Positions 19,447 through 53,125 of a DNA stretch of 64,000 nucleotides are shown here, piece after piece. The notes below the pieces were generated by a model that was not told the DNA's origin, searched no databases, and worked only from the letters and a program-made list of their open reading frames with translations. Location of the stretch: positions 1,391-65,390 of the forward strand of contig JAYFNY010000052.1 in NCBI GenBank assembly GCA_034933205.1. The letters are read 5' to 3'. The stretch comes from Eubacteriales bacterium. Lineage in GTDB: Bacteria > Bacillota > Clostridia > Christensenellales > CAG-138. The position numbers and the translations under genes are program-made. Each line of letters starts with the position of its first letter. Positions within the stretch are counted from its first letter, which is position 1.

Positions 19447-20874
19447 CTATAGTATAGCGGATTCGTCTCCGTTTTGCAAAAGGATCTCTTCGCGGTCCTC
19501 GTTTACCATAGGCTGCGTAATCGGCTTAACCCAGCGCATGGATCGAAAATGCGGGATCGTGATAATCAGCTTTGAAACATCGTCCACCGCAAGCATGATG
19601 ATATAGGTAGCGATAAACGAAAGCTTCAGAACAAGACCCGCTATTACGACAGCCGGCAATATGAACGCATATTGGGAAACGACATCGGTAATCAGACCGA
19701 ACCGCGTATCCCCGCCGGCCCGGAAAATTCCGACCACCTCAACATACGGAATATAGCGAACGCACGCGTCGATAGCAAAGATCAGCAGAAGCGTTCTCGC
19801 GGTCTGCGACGCCGTATCCGATAAATCGAACAGCCCGATGAGCGGATAGCGAAGCGCCACAATGAGCAGACCCGTCACCACCCCGAGCAGGGGCGTAAAC
19901 GCAAGAAACCTCCTCGCATAATCCTTACCCTGCTCCAGATCGCCCGCTCCGATGGATTTTCCCACAAGGATATTGCAGGCGTTGCAGATACCAACGAAGA
20001 ATACGAACACCAGTCCCTCGATCGTACGCTCAACGGTCAGCGCGGCGTAGTTGTCCGTTCCCATCCGACCGAGAACCATATTGATCGCAACGACGGACAA
20101 ACTCCAGAAAAACTCATTGAGCAGCACCGAAAGCGCCCGCCCCCAGAACTCTTTGAAAAAGCCCCGGATCGCAAAAATCTTCTTTAGTGGCGCAATCAGG
20201 ATGTTACGCTTGACGGCCGAAATCACAAACATAAGAACGGGATTCGCCAGCGAGGAAATCGCCGTTGCCAGCCCGGCTCCGGCAACGCCCATCGCCGGCA
20301 AACCGAACACGCCGAAGATGAACGCATAGTTGAGCACGGCGTTCAGCGCCGCGGAAAACCCGCTCGTCCACATGGGGATCTTTACCTGCTCGGTGCAGCG
20401 AAGCAGGGTGGAAAACGCAAGGTTCACCGTCAGGGAAACGTAGGAGATACAGGCATATTGTAGGTAGCGCACGCCTTCGGCAATCAGCGCCGGATCCTCC
20501 GTAAACAGTTTCATGACAAACTCGGGGAAGCAGGCAACACAAACCGTAAACAGCAGCCCCGTCGGCACCAGAAACAAAAGCATCATGCCGTATGTTTTCA
20601 GAATGCCATCCCGGTTGTTCGCGCCGTGATACTGCGCAATGAATACCGCCGCGCCGGAAGACATACCAAACGCAAGCAGTTCCACAAGGAACGAAGCCCA
20701 CCCGGCAAGGCCGACTGCGGCAATGGAAACATCGCCCAGCCGCCCAACCATGAGCGTATCGACCAGGCGGAAAGACGTCATCAATAGATTCTGGAGCGCA
20801 ATCGGCACCGCAAGCGGAAGTACCGCCGTCCAGAACGTGCGGTCAAACAGATGTGCCAGTTGTTTTTTCAGCAT
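19447..20874 (-). CDS. MATE-family efflux transporter
   Basis: 475 aa with 12 predicted TM helices and a typical MATE N-terminus (AVLPLAVPIALQNLLMTSFRLVDTLMVGRLG). Confidence 0.85.
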   Translation of the reverse strand: MLKKQLAHLFDRTFWTAVLPLAVPIALQNLLMTSFRLVDTLMVGRLGDVSIAAVGLAGWASFLVELLAFGMSSGAAVFIAQYHGANNRDGILKTYGMMLLFLVPTGLLFTVCVACFPEFVMKLFTEDPALIAEGVRYLQYACISYVSLTVNLAFSTLLRCTEQVKIPMWTSGFSAALNAVLNYAFIFGVFGLPAMGVAGAGLATAISSLANPVLMFVISAVKRNILIAPLKKIFAIRGFFKEFWGRALSVLLNEFFWSLSVVAINMVLGRMGTDNYAALTVERTIEGLVFVFFVGICNACNILVGKSIGAGDLEQGKDYARRFLAFTPLLGVVTGLLIVALRYPLIGLFDLSDTASQTARTLLLIFAIDACVRYIPYVEVVGIFRAGGDTRFGLITDVVSQYAFILPAVVIAGLVLKLSFIATYIIMLAVDDVSKLIITIPHFRSMRWVKPITQPMVNEDREEILLQNGDESAIL

Positions 20875-20980: not shown

Positions 20981-22600
20981 TCAAGCAACGCGTTCGCCGG
21001 TGCCCATTTCCGCGTCACCGGCGGTTCCGGCGCTTTTTTCCCGCCGCCGCACCGGCCAAATATGAAGCAAGCCATATGCCGCGACGGGCGCGAACAGCGG
21101 CAGATAACTCAGCGCGTAACGGGACTGCGCTTCAAAAATCAGGTGATACAGAATCCCGCCAAGAACCATAAGCGGCAAAATAAGCTTCGCCTCCGAACGC
21201 CGCCGCAACAGCAGAAGAACGCCTGACAAAAATCCACCGTAAAGAAGGATCAATTCAAAGCGCATATAGACGCTCAGATTCCCGGCAAACGACGTACCCA
21301 GCAGGTACTCTGCCAGCGCATTCTTCGCGCGGGGCATGTCCTGCATTCCTCCGTTCACCGACCAGACCGACTGAAACGTCGGTTCCAGCCACTGGGTTGC
21401 AAATTTCTCGCGATACCAGGCAAACCCTTCACCCGGGTTCGACGCAAAATACGCAAGCTTTTCGCGAATCACCGTTTCGCTGTATGCGGCAACCGCCTCC
21501 ATATCCTCACCGCAGGTTTTCGTGACGTCTTCGACGAACGCGTTGCAATACCAGCCTTTCGTATTATCCGTTTGTTCCATCGACATCGCAATCCAGCTCG
21601 TCATCGGGTATCCTTCGCCAAATGTTGCGCCGGTTTCGGATTCATAGTACCTCTGTGCGAACTGCGGACCGGGTAACGCGAGCGCAACAATGCAGACGAC
21701 GGCCGCAAGCGAGCGCCAGGACGACCTTTTCAGCGCATCCAGCAGAAGCGCAATCCCCGCTGCGATTACGGCAATCCACGCGTTGGGCTTAAGTAATACG
21801 GCGATTGCGAAAAACAGTGCGGCGGGAATCAGTTTACCCCACTTTCTTTTTATTAGATACTCGCATGTGAAATATATCCCCCACACGCAAGCAAAAAGCG
21901 ATGGAATTAAGCTGTAGGCGGCCGCGCAGTACAGAACGGGCGGAACGCAGGCAAAAAGCAGCGCGGTAGAAAGAAGCACCACACGCTCGTCCTCAAACAG
22001 CATACGAGCCAGACGAATCAACCCATCGTATGTCAAAACGAGGAGCAATACGCTCGCGCCCCGCAATGCGCCCAGGAAATGCGCGCTGCCTACGATCGCG
22101 AAAATGGCGTCCAGATATGCAAAGAAACCAAACTGGAACGGGTAACTGACAAAATAGTAGCGATAGGGATTGGCCGGGTCGGTAAAGCTCACGCTTTCCG
22201 GCGCGCCAAGACGCAGGAACTTCAGCGCGTCATACACCATACCCGCATCATGCGTCGGTTCCGCACGAAGCGAAAATACCCAGGCAAAACCAAAGAGCGC
22301 GACGAAGGTCAGCATTGCTCCGCCAAAGATCCGGTTGGCCCGGCGCGTAACCTTGCCATATCCCAGCAGGCGTACCAGCAGAAACAGCCCGGCAAACGCG
22401 GCCAGCGAAACAAGCCCGTTGACGGACAGCAGATCGACCCGCAGCGTACCAAAGTACTGTTCGGGCCGGATTCGCGCCGTATAAAACAGGCTCACAAGAA
22501 AAAGCAGCAGCGCCAGAAGCGCGGCAACCGCCATCGCCAGCAGCGAAAGGAAATCGGCCGCGCGCACATTCCGAGGGCTTGGTTCTTTTCGATCCTTCAT
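20981..22600 (-). CDS. GT-C-fold-like (ArnT/PMT-like) polytopic membrane protein, paralog 1 of 3
   Basis: 539 aa. It shares blocks with the two upstream ORFs (GEGYPMTSWIAMSM; KLILPLMVLGGILYHLIFEAQSRYALSYLPLF). Acidic loop THDAG after an early TM helix. The start overlaps the upstream stop as ATGA and is preceded by GGAGGAAG. Confidence 0.6.
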   Translation of the reverse strand: MKDRKEPSPRNVRAADFLSLLAMAVAALLALLLFLVSLFYTARIRPEQYFGTLRVDLLSVNGLVSLAAFAGLFLLVRLLGYGKVTRRANRIFGGAMLTFVALFGFAWVFSLRAEPTHDAGMVYDALKFLRLGAPESVSFTDPANPYRYYFVSYPFQFGFFAYLDAIFAIVGSAHFLGALRGASVLLLVLTYDGLIRLARMLFEDERVVLLSTALLFACVPPVLYCAAAYSLIPSLFACVWGIYFTCEYLIKRKWGKLIPAALFFAIAVLLKPNAWIAVIAAGIALLLDALKRSSWRSLAAVVCIVALALPGPQFAQRYYESETGATFGEGYPMTSWIAMSMEQTDNTKGWYCNAFVEDVTKTCGEDMEAVAAYSETVIREKLAYFASNPGEGFAWYREKFATQWLEPTFQSVWSVNGGMQDMPRAKNALAEYLLGTSFAGNLSVYMRFELILLYGGFLSGVLLLLRRRSEAKLILPLMVLGGILYHLIFEAQSRYALSYLPLFAPVAAYGLLHIWPVRRREKSAGTAGDAEMGTGERVA

Positions 22601-24204
22601 TCTGCTTCCTCCGACGGTTTCTTCGCCACCAACCCGTGTGTCTTAGGAATCCGGCGGCCGAGCGATACAATACCGGATGCCGCAAGCGGCAGCAACAGCG
22701 GCAGGTATTCCAGCACGTATTGTGATTTGCTTTCAATGATCAGGTGAAACAGAATTCCGCCGAGCACGATCAGCGGCAAAATCAGCCGCTCTTCGCCACG
22801 CCGCTTCATAAGGAAAATGGCGGAGATGGCGAAACCTGCGTAAACGCTGAGCAATACCGTTTTCATTGCGAATCGAAACACGTTGTCGAATGGGTTTGTA
22901 TAAACAAACTTTGCCAGCGCCTCCGGTTCCGCATAGGCCGGTGCACCCTTCGTAATCCAGATGCAGGTGAAGGTCGGCTCCAGCCACATGGAAGTCAGTT
23001 TTTCGAAATAGTACTCGCCCGCAAGCGTGGGATTCGCGGCGAATTCATCCAGCTTTATCCGAATGTCCGCCGCGGAACGTTCGGAAACGGCAGTCATATC
23101 TTCCCCGCAGGCGCCGCGAACCTGATCCTGGTACCACTGCACGTGCCAGCCCGCGGCTTTCGGACCATCCTGCAAACACATGGCGATCCAAAATGTTTTT
23201 GGGTACCCCTGTCCGAAGGACGTGTCCGCCGCAGACTCATATGCCTTCTGTACGATCTTCGTCCATGGTGCGGCTGCTGCCAAAAGCGCCAGAAAAATGA
23301 AGAGCGGTACGAGACGTTTGCGCGAAAGCGCACGCAGCAGCAGCGCAACACCAATTGCGAGCGCAACGATCCAGCTCGTCGTACGGACCGTTATCGCTGC
23401 CGCCAGCAGCGCCGCCGCCGGAAGCATGAACCGCTTCTTCTCCGTTTGCAAATAACAAACGGTAAAAAACACCGCCCAGACGCTGAAAGCGAACGATGGA
23501 ATCAACCCGTAAATAAACGTCGTATCCAACACCGGCTGAACGCAAAGGCAAAGAAGGACAATGGTTAAAAACGTAACCTGTTCATCCTGAAACAACCGCT
23601 CCGTCATGAGAACCAGGCCGATATAGGAAGCGATTAAGAGCGCTACGTTGGCCAGCCGCAGCATTCCAAGGGATCCGGTCGCGCCAAAGAGCGCAACGAA
23701 CGCCTGTAAATACGCCATAATACCAAACTGGTATGGACTGCGAATAAAATAATAACGGTCGAACTCGCCCGCCGTCTGCAAGGTGGAAAAGTCCCCGTGC
23801 AGCACCTTTTCCGCAATCTGGATCATGATGTCTCCGTCCGATTCCGCATGCGCGTTGACGGACATCACCCAAAGCGCGCCGAAGACGCCAAGCAGCGTGA
23901 ACGCGATCGTCGCAAACCGGCGGTTGAAGCGCTTCGTCACGCGGACGTGGCCAAGCAGCACAAGCAGCGCCACCCCCGCCGCAAGCAGCAGCAGGCTCAG
24001 CCAGACCTTTTCGCGAATCAGGGAAACATACAATTCGGTGTATGCCTCGTCGCCGATCTTTGCCGAAACGAACAGGCTCGATACCGAAAGCGCAAGAGCC
24101 GCAAGCAACACGCAAAACAGCGCAAGCGTCTCCAGTACGCGCGCAAAATGCGCCGTTCTCGAAAACGCGAGATCCGTTCCCCGGAGATCGTCTTTCCTCC
24201 TCAT
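22597..24204 (-). CDS. GT-C-fold-like polytopic membrane protein, paralog 2 of 3
   Basis: Start chosen at MRRKDDLRG so that its ATG overlaps the paralog-3 stop (ATGA). Shared blocks GQGYPKTFWIAMCL and RLILPLIVLGGILFHLIIESKSQYVLEYLPLL. Acidic loop ESDGD. Confidence 0.6.
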   Translation of the reverse strand: MRRKDDLRGTDLAFSRTAHFARVLETLALFCVLLAALALSVSSLFVSAKIGDEAYTELYVSLIREKVWLSLLLLAAGVALLVLLGHVRVTKRFNRRFATIAFTLLGVFGALWVMSVNAHAESDGDIMIQIAEKVLHGDFSTLQTAGEFDRYYFIRSPYQFGIMAYLQAFVALFGATGSLGMLRLANVALLIASYIGLVLMTERLFQDEQVTFLTIVLLCLCVQPVLDTTFIYGLIPSFAFSVWAVFFTVCYLQTEKKRFMLPAAALLAAAITVRTTSWIVALAIGVALLLRALSRKRLVPLFIFLALLAAAAPWTKIVQKAYESAADTSFGQGYPKTFWIAMCLQDGPKAAGWHVQWYQDQVRGACGEDMTAVSERSAADIRIKLDEFAANPTLAGEYYFEKLTSMWLEPTFTCIWITKGAPAYAEPEALAKFVYTNPFDNVFRFAMKTVLLSVYAGFAISAIFLMKRRGEERLILPLIVLGGILFHLIIESKSQYVLEYLPLLLPLAASGIVSLGRRIPKTHGLVAKKPSEEAE

Positions 24205-25808
24205 GCATTTCCTCGCTTTCCGTCCGTATCGTCTTTTACAAACCACGGGCGCGTATTGACCCCAAAGTCAAGAATACCGTACGCCGCGTACGGCAGAAAA
24301 AGCGGCAGATAGCTGAGCGCATATTTCGCGTTCGCTTCAAATAGAAGATGGAAGAGAATTCCTCCAACGATCATCACCGGCAAAATCGCCTGTTCCACGC
24401 TGCGTTTGCGAAGCAGAATGAAGAGAGAAAGCAAAAAACCGGCATATACGATCTGGAGCATATAGTTGAATCCCGTTTCCAGCGCTATGCCCGGCCATCG
24501 GCCGTCGTACAGACTGACCGCAAGCTTCGGCCGCTCCCCGTAGCTTTTGCATACGACGCTGGTCCAGATGCTTTCCATCGTCGGCTCGTTCCATTGCGAT
24601 GCGAATTTTTCCTGATAGAATGCGTACATGCCCTCCGGATCGTCCGCAAACCCGGCAAGGCTCGCCTGGATATCCTCGCGATTTCGTTCCTTGATCGCGT
24701 CAAGATCGGTTCCGTAGGTATGGTACATCTCCTTGGAGTACTCGTTGTACCAGCCGGCCGCCATCCAGCTTTCGCGCATTCCCATGGCCATCCAGCTCGA
24801 CATGGGGTACCCCTTGCCAAAGGACACGCCGATGCGATCCTCATATGCCGCCTGCGCGATCTTCGGTAGCGGATAGCACAGGGCAAGCAGCAGGATTGCC
24901 GCAACAGCCGGTTTCAAGCCGCGCGTTTTCAGCGCGTGGAGCAAAAGCGCGATGGAAACGGCGGCCGCGCCGATCCATGCATTGGGCTTCATATAGACTG
25001 CAACCGCGCAGAACAGAGCGGCTGGAATCAGATTGAGCAACCGATCCGTCTGCAAAAACCGTACGGCAAAATATACGCCCCAAAGCGTAAGCGCCAGCGC
25101 AGGTATCAGGCCATAGATCCAGGTGCAGGCCAGCACCGGCTGAATACAGACGCAAAGCAGAAGAAGCGTAAGGAACGTAATCCGATTATCGCGGAAAAGA
25201 CGTTGCGTAGTCATGAGCAGCGCGGCATAGCCGGACACCAGCATCAGCACATTGAGCACAGGTGCAAGGATCAGCGTTCCCTGCTCTCCGACCGCGCGAA
25301 CAAGCAATTCCAGATAACTTAAGAAACCGATCTGAAACGGAAAACGAACAAAATAGAAATACTCATAACCCGTCGTGTCCTGCAGCGCGGAAAAATCTCC
25401 TTTTACAAGATGAACGGCGCTCGAGAAAAGCACGTCCTGATCGGAGATGGGGATCGCCTTCATCATAAGGGACCAGGCGATGCCAATCAGCGCAAGCGCC
25501 GTCAGGCAAACCACCGCCGCGCCGCGGACGAACCAATCCGGCAGTTTGGTAACCCGAAGGACGCGAAACAGCGCCACCGCCACCGCGAGCACCGCCAGAT
25601 TGAGCAGGATAGAGTCCGGCTTCGCAAGGATATGCTGCGCTTCATAAGCCGCAGGATCGATATAATTCGTTGTGGTCAGGCTTGTATAAACCAGTGCAAG
25701 CGCGCAAATCAGCGCCGCCGCCAGCGCCAGAATTTCCAAAACTCCCGCGACGCGGGGCATCCCGCTCTCCGGTTTGTTCTTTCGCCACAGCGGCTTCTGT
25801 TGTTCCAT
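24201..25808 (-). CDS. GT-C-fold-like polytopic membrane protein, paralog 3 of 3 (first in the operon)
   Basis: Start chosen at MEQQKPLWRK, preceded by GGAGG plus 7 nt. Shared blocks GKGYPMSSWMAMGM and AILPVMIVGGILFHLLFEANAKYALSYLPLF. Acidic loop ISDQD. Confidence 0.6.
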   Translation of the reverse strand: MEQQKPLWRKNKPESGMPRVAGVLEILALAAALICALALVYTSLTTTNYIDPAAYEAQHILAKPDSILLNLAVLAVAVALFRVLRVTKLPDWFVRGAAVVCLTALALIGIAWSLMMKAIPISDQDVLFSSAVHLVKGDFSALQDTTGYEYFYFVRFPFQIGFLSYLELLVRAVGEQGTLILAPVLNVLMLVSGYAALLMTTQRLFRDNRITFLTLLLLCVCIQPVLACTWIYGLIPALALTLWGVYFAVRFLQTDRLLNLIPAALFCAVAVYMKPNAWIGAAAVSIALLLHALKTRGLKPAVAAILLLALCYPLPKIAQAAYEDRIGVSFGKGYPMSSWMAMGMRESWMAAGWYNEYSKEMYHTYGTDLDAIKERNREDIQASLAGFADDPEGMYAFYQEKFASQWNEPTMESIWTSVVCKSYGERPKLAVSLYDGRWPGIALETGFNYMLQIVYAGFLLSLFILLRKRSVEQAILPVMIVGGILFHLLFEANAKYALSYLPLFLPYAAYGILDFGVNTRPWFVKDDTDGKRGNA

Positions 25809-25841
25809 TCGGTAACCTCCGGTTGATTTCCCATCGCTTAA

Positions 25842-25953
25842 CATTCGACGATATCGTTCGATTCGGCTTGAATCTTGTGCGTTTCGGTTCGGAACATCAT
25901 TCGACGATATCGTTCGATTCCGCTTGAATCTTGTGCGTTTCGGTTCGAAACAT
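25842..25953 (-). repeat. Tandem direct duplication, 2 x 56 bp, 54/56 identical
   Basis: Copy 1 (25842-25897) is cattcgacgatatcgttcgattcggcttgaatcttgtgcgtttcggttcggaacat. Copy 2 (25898-25953) is identical except g>c at 25921 and g>a at 25948. Each copy contains the 10-bp palindrome ACGATATCGT (25848-25857 and 25904-25913). Confidence 0.95.
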
Positions 25954-25957
25954 AAAA

Positions 25958-25986
25958 AGTATAACGCTTCGTCCGCAGCGGTTCAA
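25958..25986 (-). promoter_or_regulatory. Near-consensus SigA-type promoter directly upstream of the 56-bp repeats
   Basis: The minus strand reads TTGAAC (25986-25981), N17, TATACT (25963-25958). The first repeat-encoded ATG begins 5 nt after the -10 element. Confidence 0.6.
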
Positions 25987-25995
25987 TCCGGCTCT

Positions 25996-27000
25996 TCAGC
26001 GGGTTCCCCCACGCGCGGTCTTCGCCGTGCCAACCCCTGCAAGAGCGCAGAGCGACAGCGCGTGCATCCATACATCCGGCGTATGGAGAAACGGTAAAAA
26101 ACGGATCATCATTCCGCCTGCAACGGAGAAAAGCACCGGAACCGCCGCGTCTTCCCGGTGAAAGAAGAACCGAACGGAGAGCAGCAGCAGCCCAAGATCC
26201 AGCGTACGCAGCAAATGCAACTCCAGGATTTGCGCATATTCCGGGACCGAACCGGCGCTTTGCTGATAAAACAATGCAGGCAGGGGGAGCAAACGATTCA
26301 CGGTGAACCAGGATACCAGCGGCAATACGGCCGACAGCACCGTGGCCAGGATCCAGTTGTTCCGCTGCTTTTTCGGCGCAAAGAAAATCGTTCCAATTCC
26401 CGCACCCGCGCCAACGAACGCCGCATACGGCCCCGTGACGCCGCCAAGCAGGAACCCAAGCGCCGCAAAATAGAGATAGGAGGAGGATTTTCGCCGCACG
26501 GCGAGTACCGACAGAAATATACCCGACAGCAGGGACGCACGCGTCCATTCGGTCATGAAGTCCGTTCCTTTGCCTGCCAGTATCGGTAAACAGGCAACGG
26601 CAAGCAACGCGGCAAGAAGGGTTCCGTCCGGTTTACTGTCCAGTTCACGCGCAATGCAAAGCGCAATCGCCGCGGATACGGCAAGGCAAACGGACCGCTC
26701 GATTTTGACCGTGCCGACAGGCAAAGCAAATTGGGCGTACAGAAAATAACCGGCGGACACAAGGACGATACTGGCAATCGAGATCCAACCCGGCAGCCGG
26801 ATCACACAAAGCAACCGCAATGCAAACAGCGCGCAGAACGCGAGGATCAGTTCCTCGACAAATCGTCCCCAGCGAAACGGATCGATCGTAATCGTGCCGG
26901 AAACGAACCATACGGCAAGAAGAATGCCAACGACGCCCGCTGCAAAAGAGCCGGTCGCGCCGTACGCAGCCGTACGTTTCACTTTTCGTCTAGTTGCCAA
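25996..27000 (-). CDS. Polytopic integral membrane protein of unknown function
   Basis: 334 aa with about 9-10 hydrophobic helices. TTG start preceded by AGAGAGG. Lies between rsmG and the GT-C-like triplet. I recognised no family motif. Confidence 0.55.
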   Translation of the reverse strand: MATRRKVKRTAAYGATGSFAAGVVGILLAVWFVSGTITIDPFRWGRFVEELILAFCALFALRLLCVIRLPGWISIASIVLVSAGYFLYAQFALPVGTVKIERSVCLAVSAAIALCIARELDSKPDGTLLAALLAVACLPILAGKGTDFMTEWTRASLLSGIFLSVLAVRRKSSSYLYFAALGFLLGGVTGPYAAFVGAGAGIGTIFFAPKKQRNNWILATVLSAVLPLVSWFTVNRLLPLPALFYQQSAGSVPEYAQILELHLLRTLDLGLLLLSVRFFFHREDAAVPVLFSVAGGMMIRFLPFLHTPDVWMHALSLCALAGVGTAKTARGGTR

Positions 27001-27041: not shown

Positions 27042-27722
27042 CTACAAGGGTTTCTTGGACGGCGTACCCGCTTTTCGGGGATACGTTTTCGGCGTAGGAG
27101 CGGCCTTTTTCATCAGGATCAATTCCCGTGCGCCGTAATCCGAAACGACAGGTATCCGCTCTGCCGACGCATGCAGCAGATGCAGCGCGTTCCGGCTGGA
27201 TTCGATTTCCTCCTTCGCATCCGCCTTATACGCAATACTGCATCCGCCAACCTTTACCAGCGGAAGCGTCAATTCCGCAAGCACCGGAAGCGAAGATACC
27301 GCGCGGCTCAGCGCCACGTCGAATTTTTCACGGTAACGCGGATCCTGCCCAGCATCCTCGGCGCGATCATGCACGCATTCGGCTTTCAAACCAAGCTCCG
27401 ACAGAACCGCTTCCAGAAACGTAAGCCGTTTTTGCAGGCTGTCCATCAGCGTAAGCTTTAAATCGGGACGAATAATGAGGAGCGGCAGCCCGGGAAAGCC
27501 CGCGCCGGTGCCAACGTCCACCACCTTCGCACCCTGCGGCAGGTAAGGCGCGGCGGCAAGCGAGTCAATAAAATGTTTTTTCGCCACATCCTCCGGTTCG
27601 ATAATCGCCGTGAGATTCACACGCTCATTCCAGCTTACAAGCATACGAAAATACTCTTCAAATTGATCCAGCTGCGCCTGCGTCAGTTCCGGCCGCTGCG
27701 AAGCTAAAATCTCCTTTATCAT
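27042..27722 (-). CDS. rsmG: 16S rRNA (guanine527-N7)-methyltransferase RsmG (GidB)
   Basis: 226 aa. SAM motif VVDVGTGAGFPGLPL. 4-nt overlap with the upstream mnmG. Confidence 0.92.
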   Translation of the reverse strand: MIKEILASQRPELTQAQLDQFEEYFRMLVSWNERVNLTAIIEPEDVAKKHFIDSLAAAPYLPQGAKVVDVGTGAGFPGLPLLIIRPDLKLTLMDSLQKRLTFLEAVLSELGLKAECVHDRAEDAGQDPRYREKFDVALSRAVSSLPVLAELTLPLVKVGGCSIAYKADAKEEIESSRNALHLLHASAERIPVVSDYGARELILMKKAAPTPKTYPRKAGTPSKKPL

Positions 27723-29623
27723 GCGTCCTCCCCCGGTTTTCGCTCACCCGTAGCCTGAAATCCCCGCTTGACATAGATCAACAGCACGTTCACATCCGCC
27801 GGAGTAACGCCGGAGATCCGTCCGGCCATCCCGATGTTCAACGGTTTTTGTTTGTTCAGCTTCTGCCTTGCTTCGAGACGCAAGCCTTCCAGCGTCAGAT
27901 AATCCACATCTTGCGGAAGCGGAGTATCCTCCAGCGCCCGGCTTCTTTTGACCTGTTCCTGCTGTTTTTGAATATATCCGTCGTAGCGCGCAAGCGTTTC
28001 CACGCGCTCCTCGGTCTCCCAGTCCAGCGGCTCAAGGGAGTTAAAAATAGAAAGCAGGTCGGTATAGCGGATATTTGCCCGCTTGAGCAAATCGAACCGT
28101 TTTATGCCGCCGGCCGGTATGCTTTCGCCTTTTTCGGTCAGCAAGCCGGACAGAGCCTCGCTCGGCGGGGCGATAACGTCCAGCGATGCAAGCGCCTTTT
28201 GGATGCGCTGCTGCTTTCGCATCAGCCGCTCATAGCGTTCGCCGGAAATCAGTCCTGTGCGCAGCGCTTTTTCGGTCAGCCGCTCGTCCGCATTGTCCTG
28301 CCGCAGCAGCAGACGGTACTCACAGCGGGAAGTCATCATTCGATAGGGCTCCGGCGTACCCTTCACGGAAAGGTCGTCCACCAGTACGCCAAGGTACGCC
28401 TCGTCGCGCCCCAGAACAAACGGCTCTTCATTCCGGCAGTAGAGCGCCGCGTTGATGCCCGCCAGCAGGCCCTGGGCGGCCGCTTCCTCGTAACCGCTCG
28501 TCCCGTTGACCTGCCCGGCGAGATAAAGGCCGGGGATGTTCCGTATTCCAAGCGTCCGTTCCAGCGCGGTGGGATCGATACAATCGTACTCGATCGCATA
28601 TCCAAGCCGCATCACCTCGCAGCGATGCAACCCGGGCATCGTGCGCAGCATCGCAACCTGCACGTCCCCCGGCAGACTCGTGCTCATACCCTGCACGTAC
28701 ATCTCATGCGTCGACAATCCTTCCGGTTCGATAAAGATCTGATGCCGCGCTTTATCCGCAAAACGAACCAGTTTGTCCTCAATGCTGGGGCAGTAGCGCG
28801 TTCCCGTCGCATGAATTTTTCCGCTGTACATCGCGGAACGGTGAAGGTTCTCCAGAATAATGCGATGCGTTTCGTCATTCGTATAGGTCAGGTAACAAGG
28901 CGTCTGCTCCCGCTCGAGGTGTCCGTTCAGAAACGAAAACGCAGGGATCGGTACGTCGCCGTCCTGTCGCTCCATCTCATCGAAATCCAGGGAGAGTCCA
29001 TTGACGCGCGCAGGTGTCCCCGTTTTGAACCGCTGGAGTGGAACGCCAAGCTCGGACAACGCATCGGAGAGCGTTTCGGAGCGCAGCAATCCGGCGGGGC
29101 CGCTGTTGCGGCACAGTTCGCCGATCAGGATCCGGCTCTTCATATATACACCCGCGCAGACAACCGCCGCACGGCAGGCGTAACGGAACCCTTCCGCCGT
29201 CTCCACGCCGCTAATGCGACCATTTTGGGTCAAAAAGCGACTCGCCTCACCCTGCGATACGGTTATGTTGTTCTGTTCCTCCAAAGCACGTTTGACACGT
29301 TCGTGATAGCGCCGTTTATCCATCTGCGCGCGGAGAGAATGCACAGCGGGTCCCTTTCCGGTGTTGAGCATGCGCATCTGAATCAGCGTATCATCCGCGG
29401 CCAGCCCCATTTCACCGCCAAGCGCGTCAATCTCCCGTACAAGATGCCCCTTTCCGGTGCCTCCAATTGCTGGATTGCAGGGCATAAGCCCCACCGAATC
29501 CAAGTTTAACGTTAAAAGTAATGTCTTTTGCCCCATTCTCGCGCTGGCAAGTGCGGCTTCCACCCCGGCGTGCCCCGCGCCAATAACGACAATATCGTAT
29601 TTCTGTTCGCTTTTTTGATCCAT
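27719..29623 (-). CDS. mnmG: tRNA uridine 5-carboxymethylaminomethyl modification enzyme MnmG (GidA)
   Basis: Start trimmed to MDQKSEQKYDIVVIGAGHAGVEAA (FAD motif). Also GQVNGTSGYEEAAAQGLLAGINA. Confidence 0.95.
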   Translation of the reverse strand: MDQKSEQKYDIVVIGAGHAGVEAALASARMGQKTLLLTLNLDSVGLMPCNPAIGGTGKGHLVREIDALGGEMGLAADDTLIQMRMLNTGKGPAVHSLRAQMDKRRYHERVKRALEEQNNITVSQGEASRFLTQNGRISGVETAEGFRYACRAAVVCAGVYMKSRILIGELCRNSGPAGLLRSETLSDALSELGVPLQRFKTGTPARVNGLSLDFDEMERQDGDVPIPAFSFLNGHLEREQTPCYLTYTNDETHRIILENLHRSAMYSGKIHATGTRYCPSIEDKLVRFADKARHQIFIEPEGLSTHEMYVQGMSTSLPGDVQVAMLRTMPGLHRCEVMRLGYAIEYDCIDPTALERTLGIRNIPGLYLAGQVNGTSGYEEAAAQGLLAGINAALYCRNEEPFVLGRDEAYLGVLVDDLSVKGTPEPYRMMTSRCEYRLLLRQDNADERLTEKALRTGLISGERYERLMRKQQRIQKALASLDVIAPPSEALSGLLTEKGESIPAGGIKRFDLLKRANIRYTDLLSIFNSLEPLDWETEERVETLARYDGYIQKQQEQVKRSRALEDTPLPQDVDYLTLEGLRLEARQKLNKQKPLNIGMAGRISGVTPADVNVLLIYVKRGFQATGERKPGEDA

Positions 29624-29784
29624 TCGATCCTTGCTGGTCCTATCCGTGCCGCGACCGCGGTTTTTCCCGGTGCGAATTACACACGCGCATTTTATCACAC
29701 ACACTCGTTGCCCGCAACGCGCCGTCTTGTGTTATACTGGTAAAAATGAAATGAACACCGCTTCACCAAGGGGGACACATATCC

Positions 29785-52934: not shown

Positions 52935-52965
52935 CGCTTGCCATGTCGTTTATCAAAATGGCATA

Positions 52966-53125
52966 TCGCTTCTTCCATCCGGACTTCCTGCGAACGACCG
53001 GTTCGCAGCTTACCGTCGGCAACGGATTCTTACCGTTTCGACCGCCAATGCGGCTCGCGGGCTTATCGGCATGTCTGCCGCATCACCGCCGGTGGGGAAT
53101 TGCACCCCGCCCCGAAGCTGATTCT
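52966..53125 (-). promoter_or_regulatory. FMN riboswitch (RFN element) aptamer
   Basis: The minus strand reads CTTCGGGGCGGGGTGCAATTCCCCACCGGCGGT...AGCCCGCGAGCC...GGTCGAAACGG...GCCGACGGTAAGC...AGTCCGGATGGAAGAAG. This matches the conserved RFN core I recall from the B. subtilis ribD leader (CTTCGGGGCAGGGTGAAATTCCCGACCGGCGGT...AGCCCG...GCCGACAGT..AGTCTGGATGGGAGAAG). Confidence 0.85.

Follow-up and report, generated by a model that had tools for sequence, protein, structure and literature searches.

A 56-bp minisatellite of variable copy number ahead of a GT-C-like operon in an uncultured Clostridia species

Introduction

Bacterial intergenic VNTR loci are of the kind used for MLVA typing, and they usually have no demonstrated function. 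The locus described here—a 56-bp repeat ahead of a three-gene GT-C-like operon, on a 64-kb stretch of DNA that we refer to throughout as the window—is an element of that kind, a bacterial intergenic VNTR or minisatellite, placed in this case in a 5' UTR. It has in common with other such loci a unit of tens of base pairs, a head-to-tail arrangement, an intergenic position, a copy number that varies among close strains, and units that diverge and re-homogenise. It differs in that the array has only one to about three copies and sits at the exact start of the 5' UTR, between a promoter and a Shine-Dalgarno (SD) sequence, and in that it is known from metagenome assemblies of an uncultured species only, unlike the typed VNTR loci. 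A sequence-only reading of the window had stated that no described element is like this one, which is an overstatement for what is a 5' UTR minisatellite.

Mycobacterial interspersed repetitive units (MIRUs) resemble the 56-mer in their similar unit size, their tandem and intergenic arrangement and the small ORF in each unit, and they are the nearest described element as regards the 4-nt overlap of stop and start (of the ATGA/TGATG type). However, MIRUs are dispersed at many loci and are apparently mobile, whereas the 56-mer is present at one locus in the sequence searched, and the last mini-ORF here ends 29 nt ahead of the GT-C start codon, with no -4 coupling to the gene; on these two grounds identity with MIRUs was rejected. 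The lineage moreover belongs to the Clostridia and not to the mycobacteria, and one common allele of the 56-mer has a broken ORF. No MIRU record or other related sequence came up in any of the searches.

A more distant comparison is with phase-variation systems. In the pil1 system of Streptococcus gallolyticus the repeats reportedly lie within a leader peptide, and both this system and those of Haemophilus influenzae are said to have units of 1-7 nt, many copies and high switching rates. One report describes an attenuation-like mechanism for pilus phase variation in S. gallolyticus (PMC3894217), and a second describes an intergenic repeat of H. influenzae that acts through a 5'-UTR RNA element and RNase III processing (PMC12721329). 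The likeness is one of position, the tandem repeats of those systems being placed after the promoter and ahead of the start codon of surface-structure genes, and of a copy number that varies within populations; unlike them, the array here has a 56-nt unit, no terminator and no predicted change in accessibility, and we regard both systems as functional analogies only.

Results and Discussion

The repeat array and its surroundings

All of the genes around the array—mnmG, rsmG, a gene for a 334-aa membrane protein, three paralogs and a MatE transporter gene—lie on the minus strand, and the intergenic gap from the stop of the 334-aa gene to the ATG of the first GT-C-like gene is 187 nt (Table 1). 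The three GT-C-like paralogs are 535-549 aa long and 38-40% identical in pairwise comparison. The Pfam PMT_2 threshold is passed by the third paralog only, matches to glycosyltransferases in NCBIfam are all sub-threshold, and no sequence relative was found in the PDB with the third paralog, the only one searched; the label GT-C-like seems reasonable on these weak profile matches. No transcription-factor gene adjoins the operon. A genome scan gave uncultured Eubacteriales, Christensenella and Oscillospiraceae MAGs as the nearest relatives.

Table 1. Features of the array and its surroundings in the window.
Feature	Position	Strand	Remarks
MatE transporter	19447-20874	minus	
First of three tandem multi-pass membrane paralogs (GT-C/PMT_2-like), 535 aa	24201..25808	minus	
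Unique 3' part of leader	25809..25841	minus	Conserved CCGGAGG Shine-Dalgarno 7 nt ahead of ATG; shared without change by every strain at 97% protein identity or above
Repeat unit 2	25842..25897	minus	Haplotype C6/C33; identical to the single unit of L014
Repeat unit 1	25898..25953	minus	Haplotype T6/G33; perfect hairpin GUUUCG-AAC-CGAAAC and palindrome ACGATATCGT
Likely transcription start	25951	minus	7th nt past the -10, the G of the first ATG; from the purine kept in 10 loci
Putative SigA/sigma-70-type promoter of the GT-C operon	25958..25986	minus	TTGAAC (-35), N17, TATACT (-10); pattern scan and conservation
334-aa membrane protein gene	25996..27000	minus	Stop codon 9 nt ahead of the -35; family unassigned
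rsmG	27042-27722	minus	
mnmG	27719-29704	minus	

The array consists of two 56-bp copies arranged head to tail on the minus strand at positions 25842-25953, with two mismatches between them. Tandem Repeats Finder reports a period of 56, 2.0 copies, 96% matches and 0 indels, and the array is the sole tandem repeat scoring 60 or more across the 64-kb window. A 53-nt core occurs twice in the window at up to three mismatches (0 expected from shuffles), and no further copies of the 56-mer were found in the window outside the array. The first base of the array is the fifth past the TATACT of the promoter-like site, with four T in between. The two units differ at position 6 (T/C) and position 33 (G/C); the differences are separated by 27 nt and therefore share their codon position whichever frame is read, and they are silent also in one reverse frame.

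Each unit opens a mini-ORF, the products being MFRTETHKIQAESNDIVE (18 aa) and MFRTETHKIQAESNDIVEC (19 aa), both followed by a stop. TGATG, a stop overlapping the next start, occurs at the unit junction only, and the last mini-ORF ends in a TAA at 25838-25840, 29 nt before the GT-C ATG (25808). These points had been read correctly from the letters, as had the position of the TAA at 25838, from which the distance to GGAGG is 17 nt and not 15 as then given. No SD sequence precedes either mini-ORF ATG. On the minus strand, the leader 3' of the units reads TTAAGCGATGGGAAATCAACC-GGAGG-TTACCGA-ATG, and no terminator or attenuator was found in the leader. A hairpin GUUUCG/CGAAAC, previously assigned to each copy, is perfect in copy 1 only, copy 2 (GUUCCG) having a C.A mismatch. 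A 236-aa ORF that runs through the repeat (25838-26548), and that shares sequence with the 334-aa gene but is in a different frame, was treated as spurious.

The promoter and the likely transcription start

TTGAAC-N17-TATACT has 9 of 12 consensus matches, and the one site compares with 0.3 expected. Comparison across orthologs supports the earlier reading of this site as a promoter: TTGnnn-N17-TATACT is kept in 10 of 10 orthologous loci, down to 66% protein identity, with diverged spacer sequences, and the seventh base past the -10 is a purine in all ten. We take the promoter to be supported because the -35, the 17-nt spacing, the TATACT and the downstream purine are retained while the spacer and the leader change. 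The ribosome-binding site CCGGAGG is also kept among the ten loci (as GCGGAGG in L022), 7-14 nt ahead of the ATG.

The conserved purine makes the G of the first ATG the likely start of transcription. If so, that ATG would be left off the mRNA and the GUUUCG...CGAAAC hairpin would be 5'-terminal; the first mini-ORF opens with an A only 5 nt past the -10.

Two other motif-based ideas were set aside. Direct repeats of TCGAAC at spacings of 31 and 25 nt, considered as response-regulator sites, are lost at both positions in L019 and L024. An origin-proximal parS, Noc or DnaA-box site, an idea prompted by the nearby mnmG-rsmG, was dismissed by eye on the grounds that GTTTCGAACCGAAAC differs from parS in its center and length; only its outer arms are common to what we take to be the parS consensus.

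Orthologous loci and copy number

Orthologous loci were ranked by the protein identity of the first GT-C gene to that of the window. The identities are: 100% (L005-L013, all Logan contigs), 99.4% (L014, L021 and L026), 99.1% (L019 and L020), 97.4% (L024, a different strain in an independent ENA assembly), about 94% (L022/L023), 87% (L015), 80% (L016/17), 79% (L018), 75% (L001) and 66% (L002). Gene order is kept across all of the loci collected, among which the 56-mer is confined to strains with 94% or higher identity in the GT-C protein, that is, to one species.

Two copy-number states can be read directly. One unit, with an intergenic region of 131-132 nt, is present in L014, L019 (together with five similar contigs) and L022/L023, and two units, with an intergenic region of 187 nt, are present in the window and in L024. 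Strains thus differ in copy number at a single locus while the unit boundaries stay the same, as in a minisatellite or VNTR, and the unit is within the 10-100 bp size range of such elements. The junction GAATG/ATGTT is the same in the window and L024; the two units of L024 differ from each other at 6 sites and those of the window at 2. The 2 x 56-bp tandem duplication that the sequence-only reading had described is thus borne out both by Tandem Repeats Finder and by an independent two-copy strain, and the variation in copy number that it proposed to look for in relatives is present, with one versus two copies read and at least three probable (see below). Taken together, these alleles indicate that the duplication is real, old and of single origin, because L024 is an independent assembly and has the same junction with diverged units; an assembly artefact was rejected on the same ground.

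No homologue of the 56-mer was found in the loci at 87% identity or less (L015, L016, L018, L001 and L002), where the leader from promoter to SD is 60-101 nt long and not alignable. Fourfold-degenerate divergence between the window and L015 is already 42%, and loss of leader alignability at this distance is what neutral evolution predicts.

Dispersal of the 56-mer

The fetched loci contain no 56-mer outside the array site, and searches of viral contigs and plasmids gave no match. JGI metagenomes gave one match (L025), which falls within a coding region of no relation to this locus, has flanks that do not match and contains no repeat; we estimate that about one such match would be expected by chance. 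A dispersed repeat or mobile element is ruled out within the window, the fetched loci, the JGI metagenomes, the viral contigs and the plasmids, in agreement with the earlier view that the element is locus-specific, the 56-mer being at one site within the sequence searched.

Rate of change and relationships among units

The single units of L014 and L019 differ at 9 of 56 positions, versus 0 of 81 in the flanking intergenic sequence, with 5.9% divergence at fourfold sites. Between the window and L022, 10 of the 56 unit positions differ and there is a 1-nt indel, with a fourfold divergence of 24.9%. By these comparisons the unit appears to evolve at or above the neutral rate, between a promoter and an SD sequence that are conserved on either side of it. 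The excess between L014 and L019, which is about three times the neutral expectation with zero change in the flanks, would be explained by paralogous sorting of old units or by diversifying selection.

The two window units show 6 and 7 differences from unit 1 of L024, and 9 and 9 from its unit 2; the single unit of L019 and unit 2 of L024 have two differing sites. These relationships fit repeated expansion and contraction with homogenisation, and the single-copy strains may be so different because they retain different paralogous units. The two-copy state is found in two lineages that are 8.9% apart at fourfold sites, so that the persistence of two copies could be tolerated or mildly favored and not purely neutral.

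A probable near-neutral minisatellite

We consider it probable that the array is a near-neutral 5'-UTR minisatellite (VNTR) within one uncultured Clostridia species (Christensenellales/Eubacteriales-like). On this explanation the first 56 nt of the poorly constrained, untranslated leader of the three-gene GT-C-like operon would have been duplicated once in the ancestry of the species, through a blunt junction (GAATG/ATGTT) without microhomology. Microhomology was considered and discarded: the ancestral unit has an ATGTT at either end, but the two are 53 nt apart and not 56. We infer that the array would then have gained and lost units, passing among 1, 2 and at least 3 copies through slippage or unequal homologous recombination, the same process at times homogenising the units, as in the window, and at times allowing them to diverge, as in L024. 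The unit itself would have no sequence-specific function, and each added unit would simply make the leader 56 nt longer. Duplicating a segment with ATG at both its ends would by itself produce the twin mini-ORFs, the overlapping TGATG and the pair of palindromes with their 56-bp spacing; these striking features, together with the synonymous-only differences between the window units, can thus stem from plain duplication, and the significance of the array beyond this locus is probably small.

Alternative readings of the unit

Three readings left side by side by the sequence-only reading—a constrained peptide, an operator pair and an RNA leader—each fail at least one test that had been named beforehand as decisive. 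The peptide reading supposes a leaderless start at the first AUG giving the 18-aa peptide, then re-initiation at UGAUG giving the 19-aa one, with an effect on the GT-C gene. The ATG is indeed kept in all alleles of the species, and the mini-ORF is open in five of the six full alleles, including that of the 94% strain (MFRTETQKNQAESNAVVKR, then a stop); the products of the unit alleles are MFRTETHKIQAESNDIVE(C), MFRAKTQKNQAESNDIVE, MFRAETQENQAESDDIVKC, MFRTETQKNQAESNAVVKR and, in L019, MFRAETQKN followed by a stop. This last allele has a premature TAA at codon 10 and is found on seven contigs (L019 and six more). That the two differences between the window units are synonymous had been rightly observed and offered as a weak sign of constraint on the peptide; taken alone it has a p of about 0.04 (for a synonymous fraction of 0.20), but the effect is lost in the larger sample. 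In the ATG frame, 8 of the 19 substitution events inferred among six unit alleles are synonymous, 10 are non-synonymous and 1 is nonsense, so that substitutions do not stay synonymous as the peptide reading anticipated. The 8 of 19 compare with an expectation of about 20% (binomial p from 0.02 to 0.18 according to the synonymous fraction assumed), but with all six frames counted the synonymous number is again 8 in frame +1 and is 9 in each of two reverse frames; no frame-specific excess of synonymous change, such as would mark a leader peptide or uORF, is found across the six. The variable sites fall 8/2/7 by codon position, both ATGs are without an SD sequence, the A of the first is the fifth nucleotide past the -10 while the conserved purine is the seventh, and the ORF, like the unit, is missing from orthologs at 87% identity or less. 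We therefore think translated leader peptides very unlikely, and neither mini-ORF should receive a gene annotation. A pair of operators would have a dimeric regulator bind ACGATATCGT as a roadblock or repressor, the duplication adding a second operator 56 bp off. The 10-bp palindrome, like the ATG, is invariant among alleles of the 97-100% strains, is intact in the partial allele of L026, and is enriched in the window, where four sites with at most one mismatch are present versus 0.35 expected, two of the four being inside the repeat. The sample of alleles is, however, small, and 10 invariant nt given 13 variable sites in 56 are not significant (about 0.08 per window, by our estimate). In L022/L023, at about 94% identity, the palindrome has become ATGCTGTCGT while the promoter and the operon are kept, and it is absent from L015, L016, L018, L001 and L002, all of which retain the promoter; this is not the distribution of an operator. 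Single-copy strains carry one palindrome, no transcription-factor gene lies beside the operon, and 56 bp correspond to 5.3 helical turns, which puts two such sites out of phase. An operator pair is accordingly a most improbable reading.

Tandem structured RNA elements in the leader, riboswitch-like or protein-binding, are to our minds exceedingly improbable. What speaks for them is that the hairpin GUUUC-N5-GAAAC, the only recurrent fold, would lie at the very 5' end and is part of the minimum-free-energy fold of four of the six alleles, and that orthologs in other species have, as judged by eye, some hairpin near the predicted 5' end. Its register, however, differs between species; the leader has no Rfam match at gathering score, and the only one at E<=10 (E = 3.7) is to a plant miRNA model, on the opposite strand, and is spurious; and the one-copy and two-copy leaders and the six unit alleles show no folding stability beyond that of shuffles (z from -0.24 to +0.97). 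No compensatory change was found in the hairpin stem, the changes at positions 6, 12 and 13 all being one-sided and disruptive. The main rival to a near-neutral minisatellite is instead a contingency or expression-tuning VNTR, in which the number of units would affect how stable the GT-C mRNA is or how well it is translated, for example through a repeated 5' hairpin or a longer leader, and would provide heritable but reversible variation in surface glycosylation, for instance against phage or host pressure. Strains with one or two copies are read directly and a third unit type is probable within samples, the array lies exactly between the conserved promoter and SD sequence of a putative surface-glycosylation operon, and two-copy alleles persist in two diverged lineages. 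In other bacteria, phase variation of surface structures is driven by repeats in leaders (PMC3894217, PMC12721329). Against this, partition functions predict no change in accessibility across 0-3 copies (SD 0.47-0.59, AUG 0.54-0.64), folding is not unusual, the leader is without a terminator or attenuator, the unit sequence drifts freely, congeners do without the unit, and copy numbers are low. Long repeat units also change far more slowly than simple-sequence repeats. With no positive support found for it, we judge tuning by copy number unlikely, and slightly more unlikely the specific form of a slow 'tuning-knob', in which unequal crossing-over within natural populations, between 1 and at least 3 copies, would alter GT-C mRNA stability or translation and diversify surface glycans, the faster-than-neutral change reflecting selection on the leader. 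An effect of copy number on expression, were there one, would make the array an unusual contingency locus with long units in a gut or anaerobe Clostridia lineage; nothing found points there.

Assembly break points and a third unit

Independent Logan contigs from at least eight runs end within the array, the copy-1 haplotype being joined to the upstream flank and the copy-2 haplotype to the downstream flank, which also speaks against an artefact of the window's own assembly. Such a break is present in every Logan contig that encodes proteins 100% identical to those of the window. The upstream contigs end in ...AAGCGGAA, six of them at ...TTCAAGCGGAA, and the downstream contigs (SRR27243484, SRR27243472 and, from an unrelated project, ERR14964770) begin at GTTCCGAACC. 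Simulated de Bruijn assembly at k=31 runs straight through a plain two-copy array, in which no 30-mer is repeated. Among the scenarios tried, only an array of three units with haplotypes T6G33, C6G33 and C6C33, in that order, reproduced both break points exactly; a mixture of this array and the two-copy allele would yield the same k-mer set. From these break points, and not from direct reading, we infer at least three units in the window's own population. Copy number is probably variable within samples, and the two copies of the window may be a collapsed array of three or more. The locus breaks short-k assemblies, and a count of two may understate arrays of at least three in the same samples. 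An unequal crossover of unit 2 with unit 1 would be expected to yield just such a chimeric unit as C6G33.

Copy number and divergence of the 56-bp repeat

The 56-bp array, a head-to-tail pair of units in the leader of the GT-C-like operon, interrupts short-k public assemblies from at least eight sequencing runs in two projects, all of which break inside it (Logan contigs L005–L013, whose first GT-C protein is identical to that of the window, and L021, where it is 99.4% identical). The units of the window are T6/G33 and C6/C33 at positions 6 and 33. The positions at which the Logan contigs break imply that there is also a third unit, the chimera C6/G33, which the window sequence lacks; the copy number in the window may therefore be a collapsed count.

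Two orthologous loci, L014 and L019 (first GT-C protein 99.4% and 99.1% identical to that of the window), were compared across the intergenic region corresponding to window 25809–25995. All 81 flanking nucleotides, on the promoter side and the Shine-Dalgarno side, are identical, whereas the 56-nt unit differs at nine positions, a divergence about three times that seen at fourfold sites in the neighbouring gene. This contrast probably arose because old, paralogous units were sorted differently into the two strains; diversifying selection could also have produced the unit divergence.

A 236-aa ORF running through both units shares sequence, in a different frame, with the upstream 334-aa membrane-protein gene, and is very likely spurious. 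The sole match to the unit core in JGI metagenomes (L025, 4660–4681, minus strand) lies inside an unrelated coding region with differing flanks and no repeat, and was taken as a chance match.

In the more distant orthologs L016 and L018 (80% and 79% identity) the Shine-Dalgarno sequence lies within ACCGGAGGCCGGU (about 1675–1690 and 2478–2492, respectively), which might fold into a 5-bp hairpin, placing AGG in the loop, and could so hide the ribosome-binding site; the window carries AACCGGAGGUU in its place.

The GT-C-like paralogs and other features

The three GT-C-like proteins share 38–40% pairwise identity, and only the last passes the Pfam PMT_2 threshold. Precomputed annotation gives a faint PF27792 match within the triplet, and an NCBIfam match to XrtG-associated glycosyltransferase is sub-threshold; a PDB search with the third paralog alone found no sequence relatives. 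In orthologous loci long enough to show the region, the triplet and its location after mnmG-rsmG-membrane protein are kept at 79–99% identity. Elsewhere in the window, an FMN riboswitch is matched over its full length.

Coordinates of features in the window
Feature	Position	Strand	Remarks
Assembly break points in array	25895–25918		L005–L013 and L021, Logan contigs
236-aa ORF	25838–26548	−	Spans both repeat units
Three tandem paralogous multi-pass membrane proteins	20981–25808	−	535–549 aa
FMN riboswitch (RF00050)	52963–53123	−	90.8 bits; gathering score 66.2
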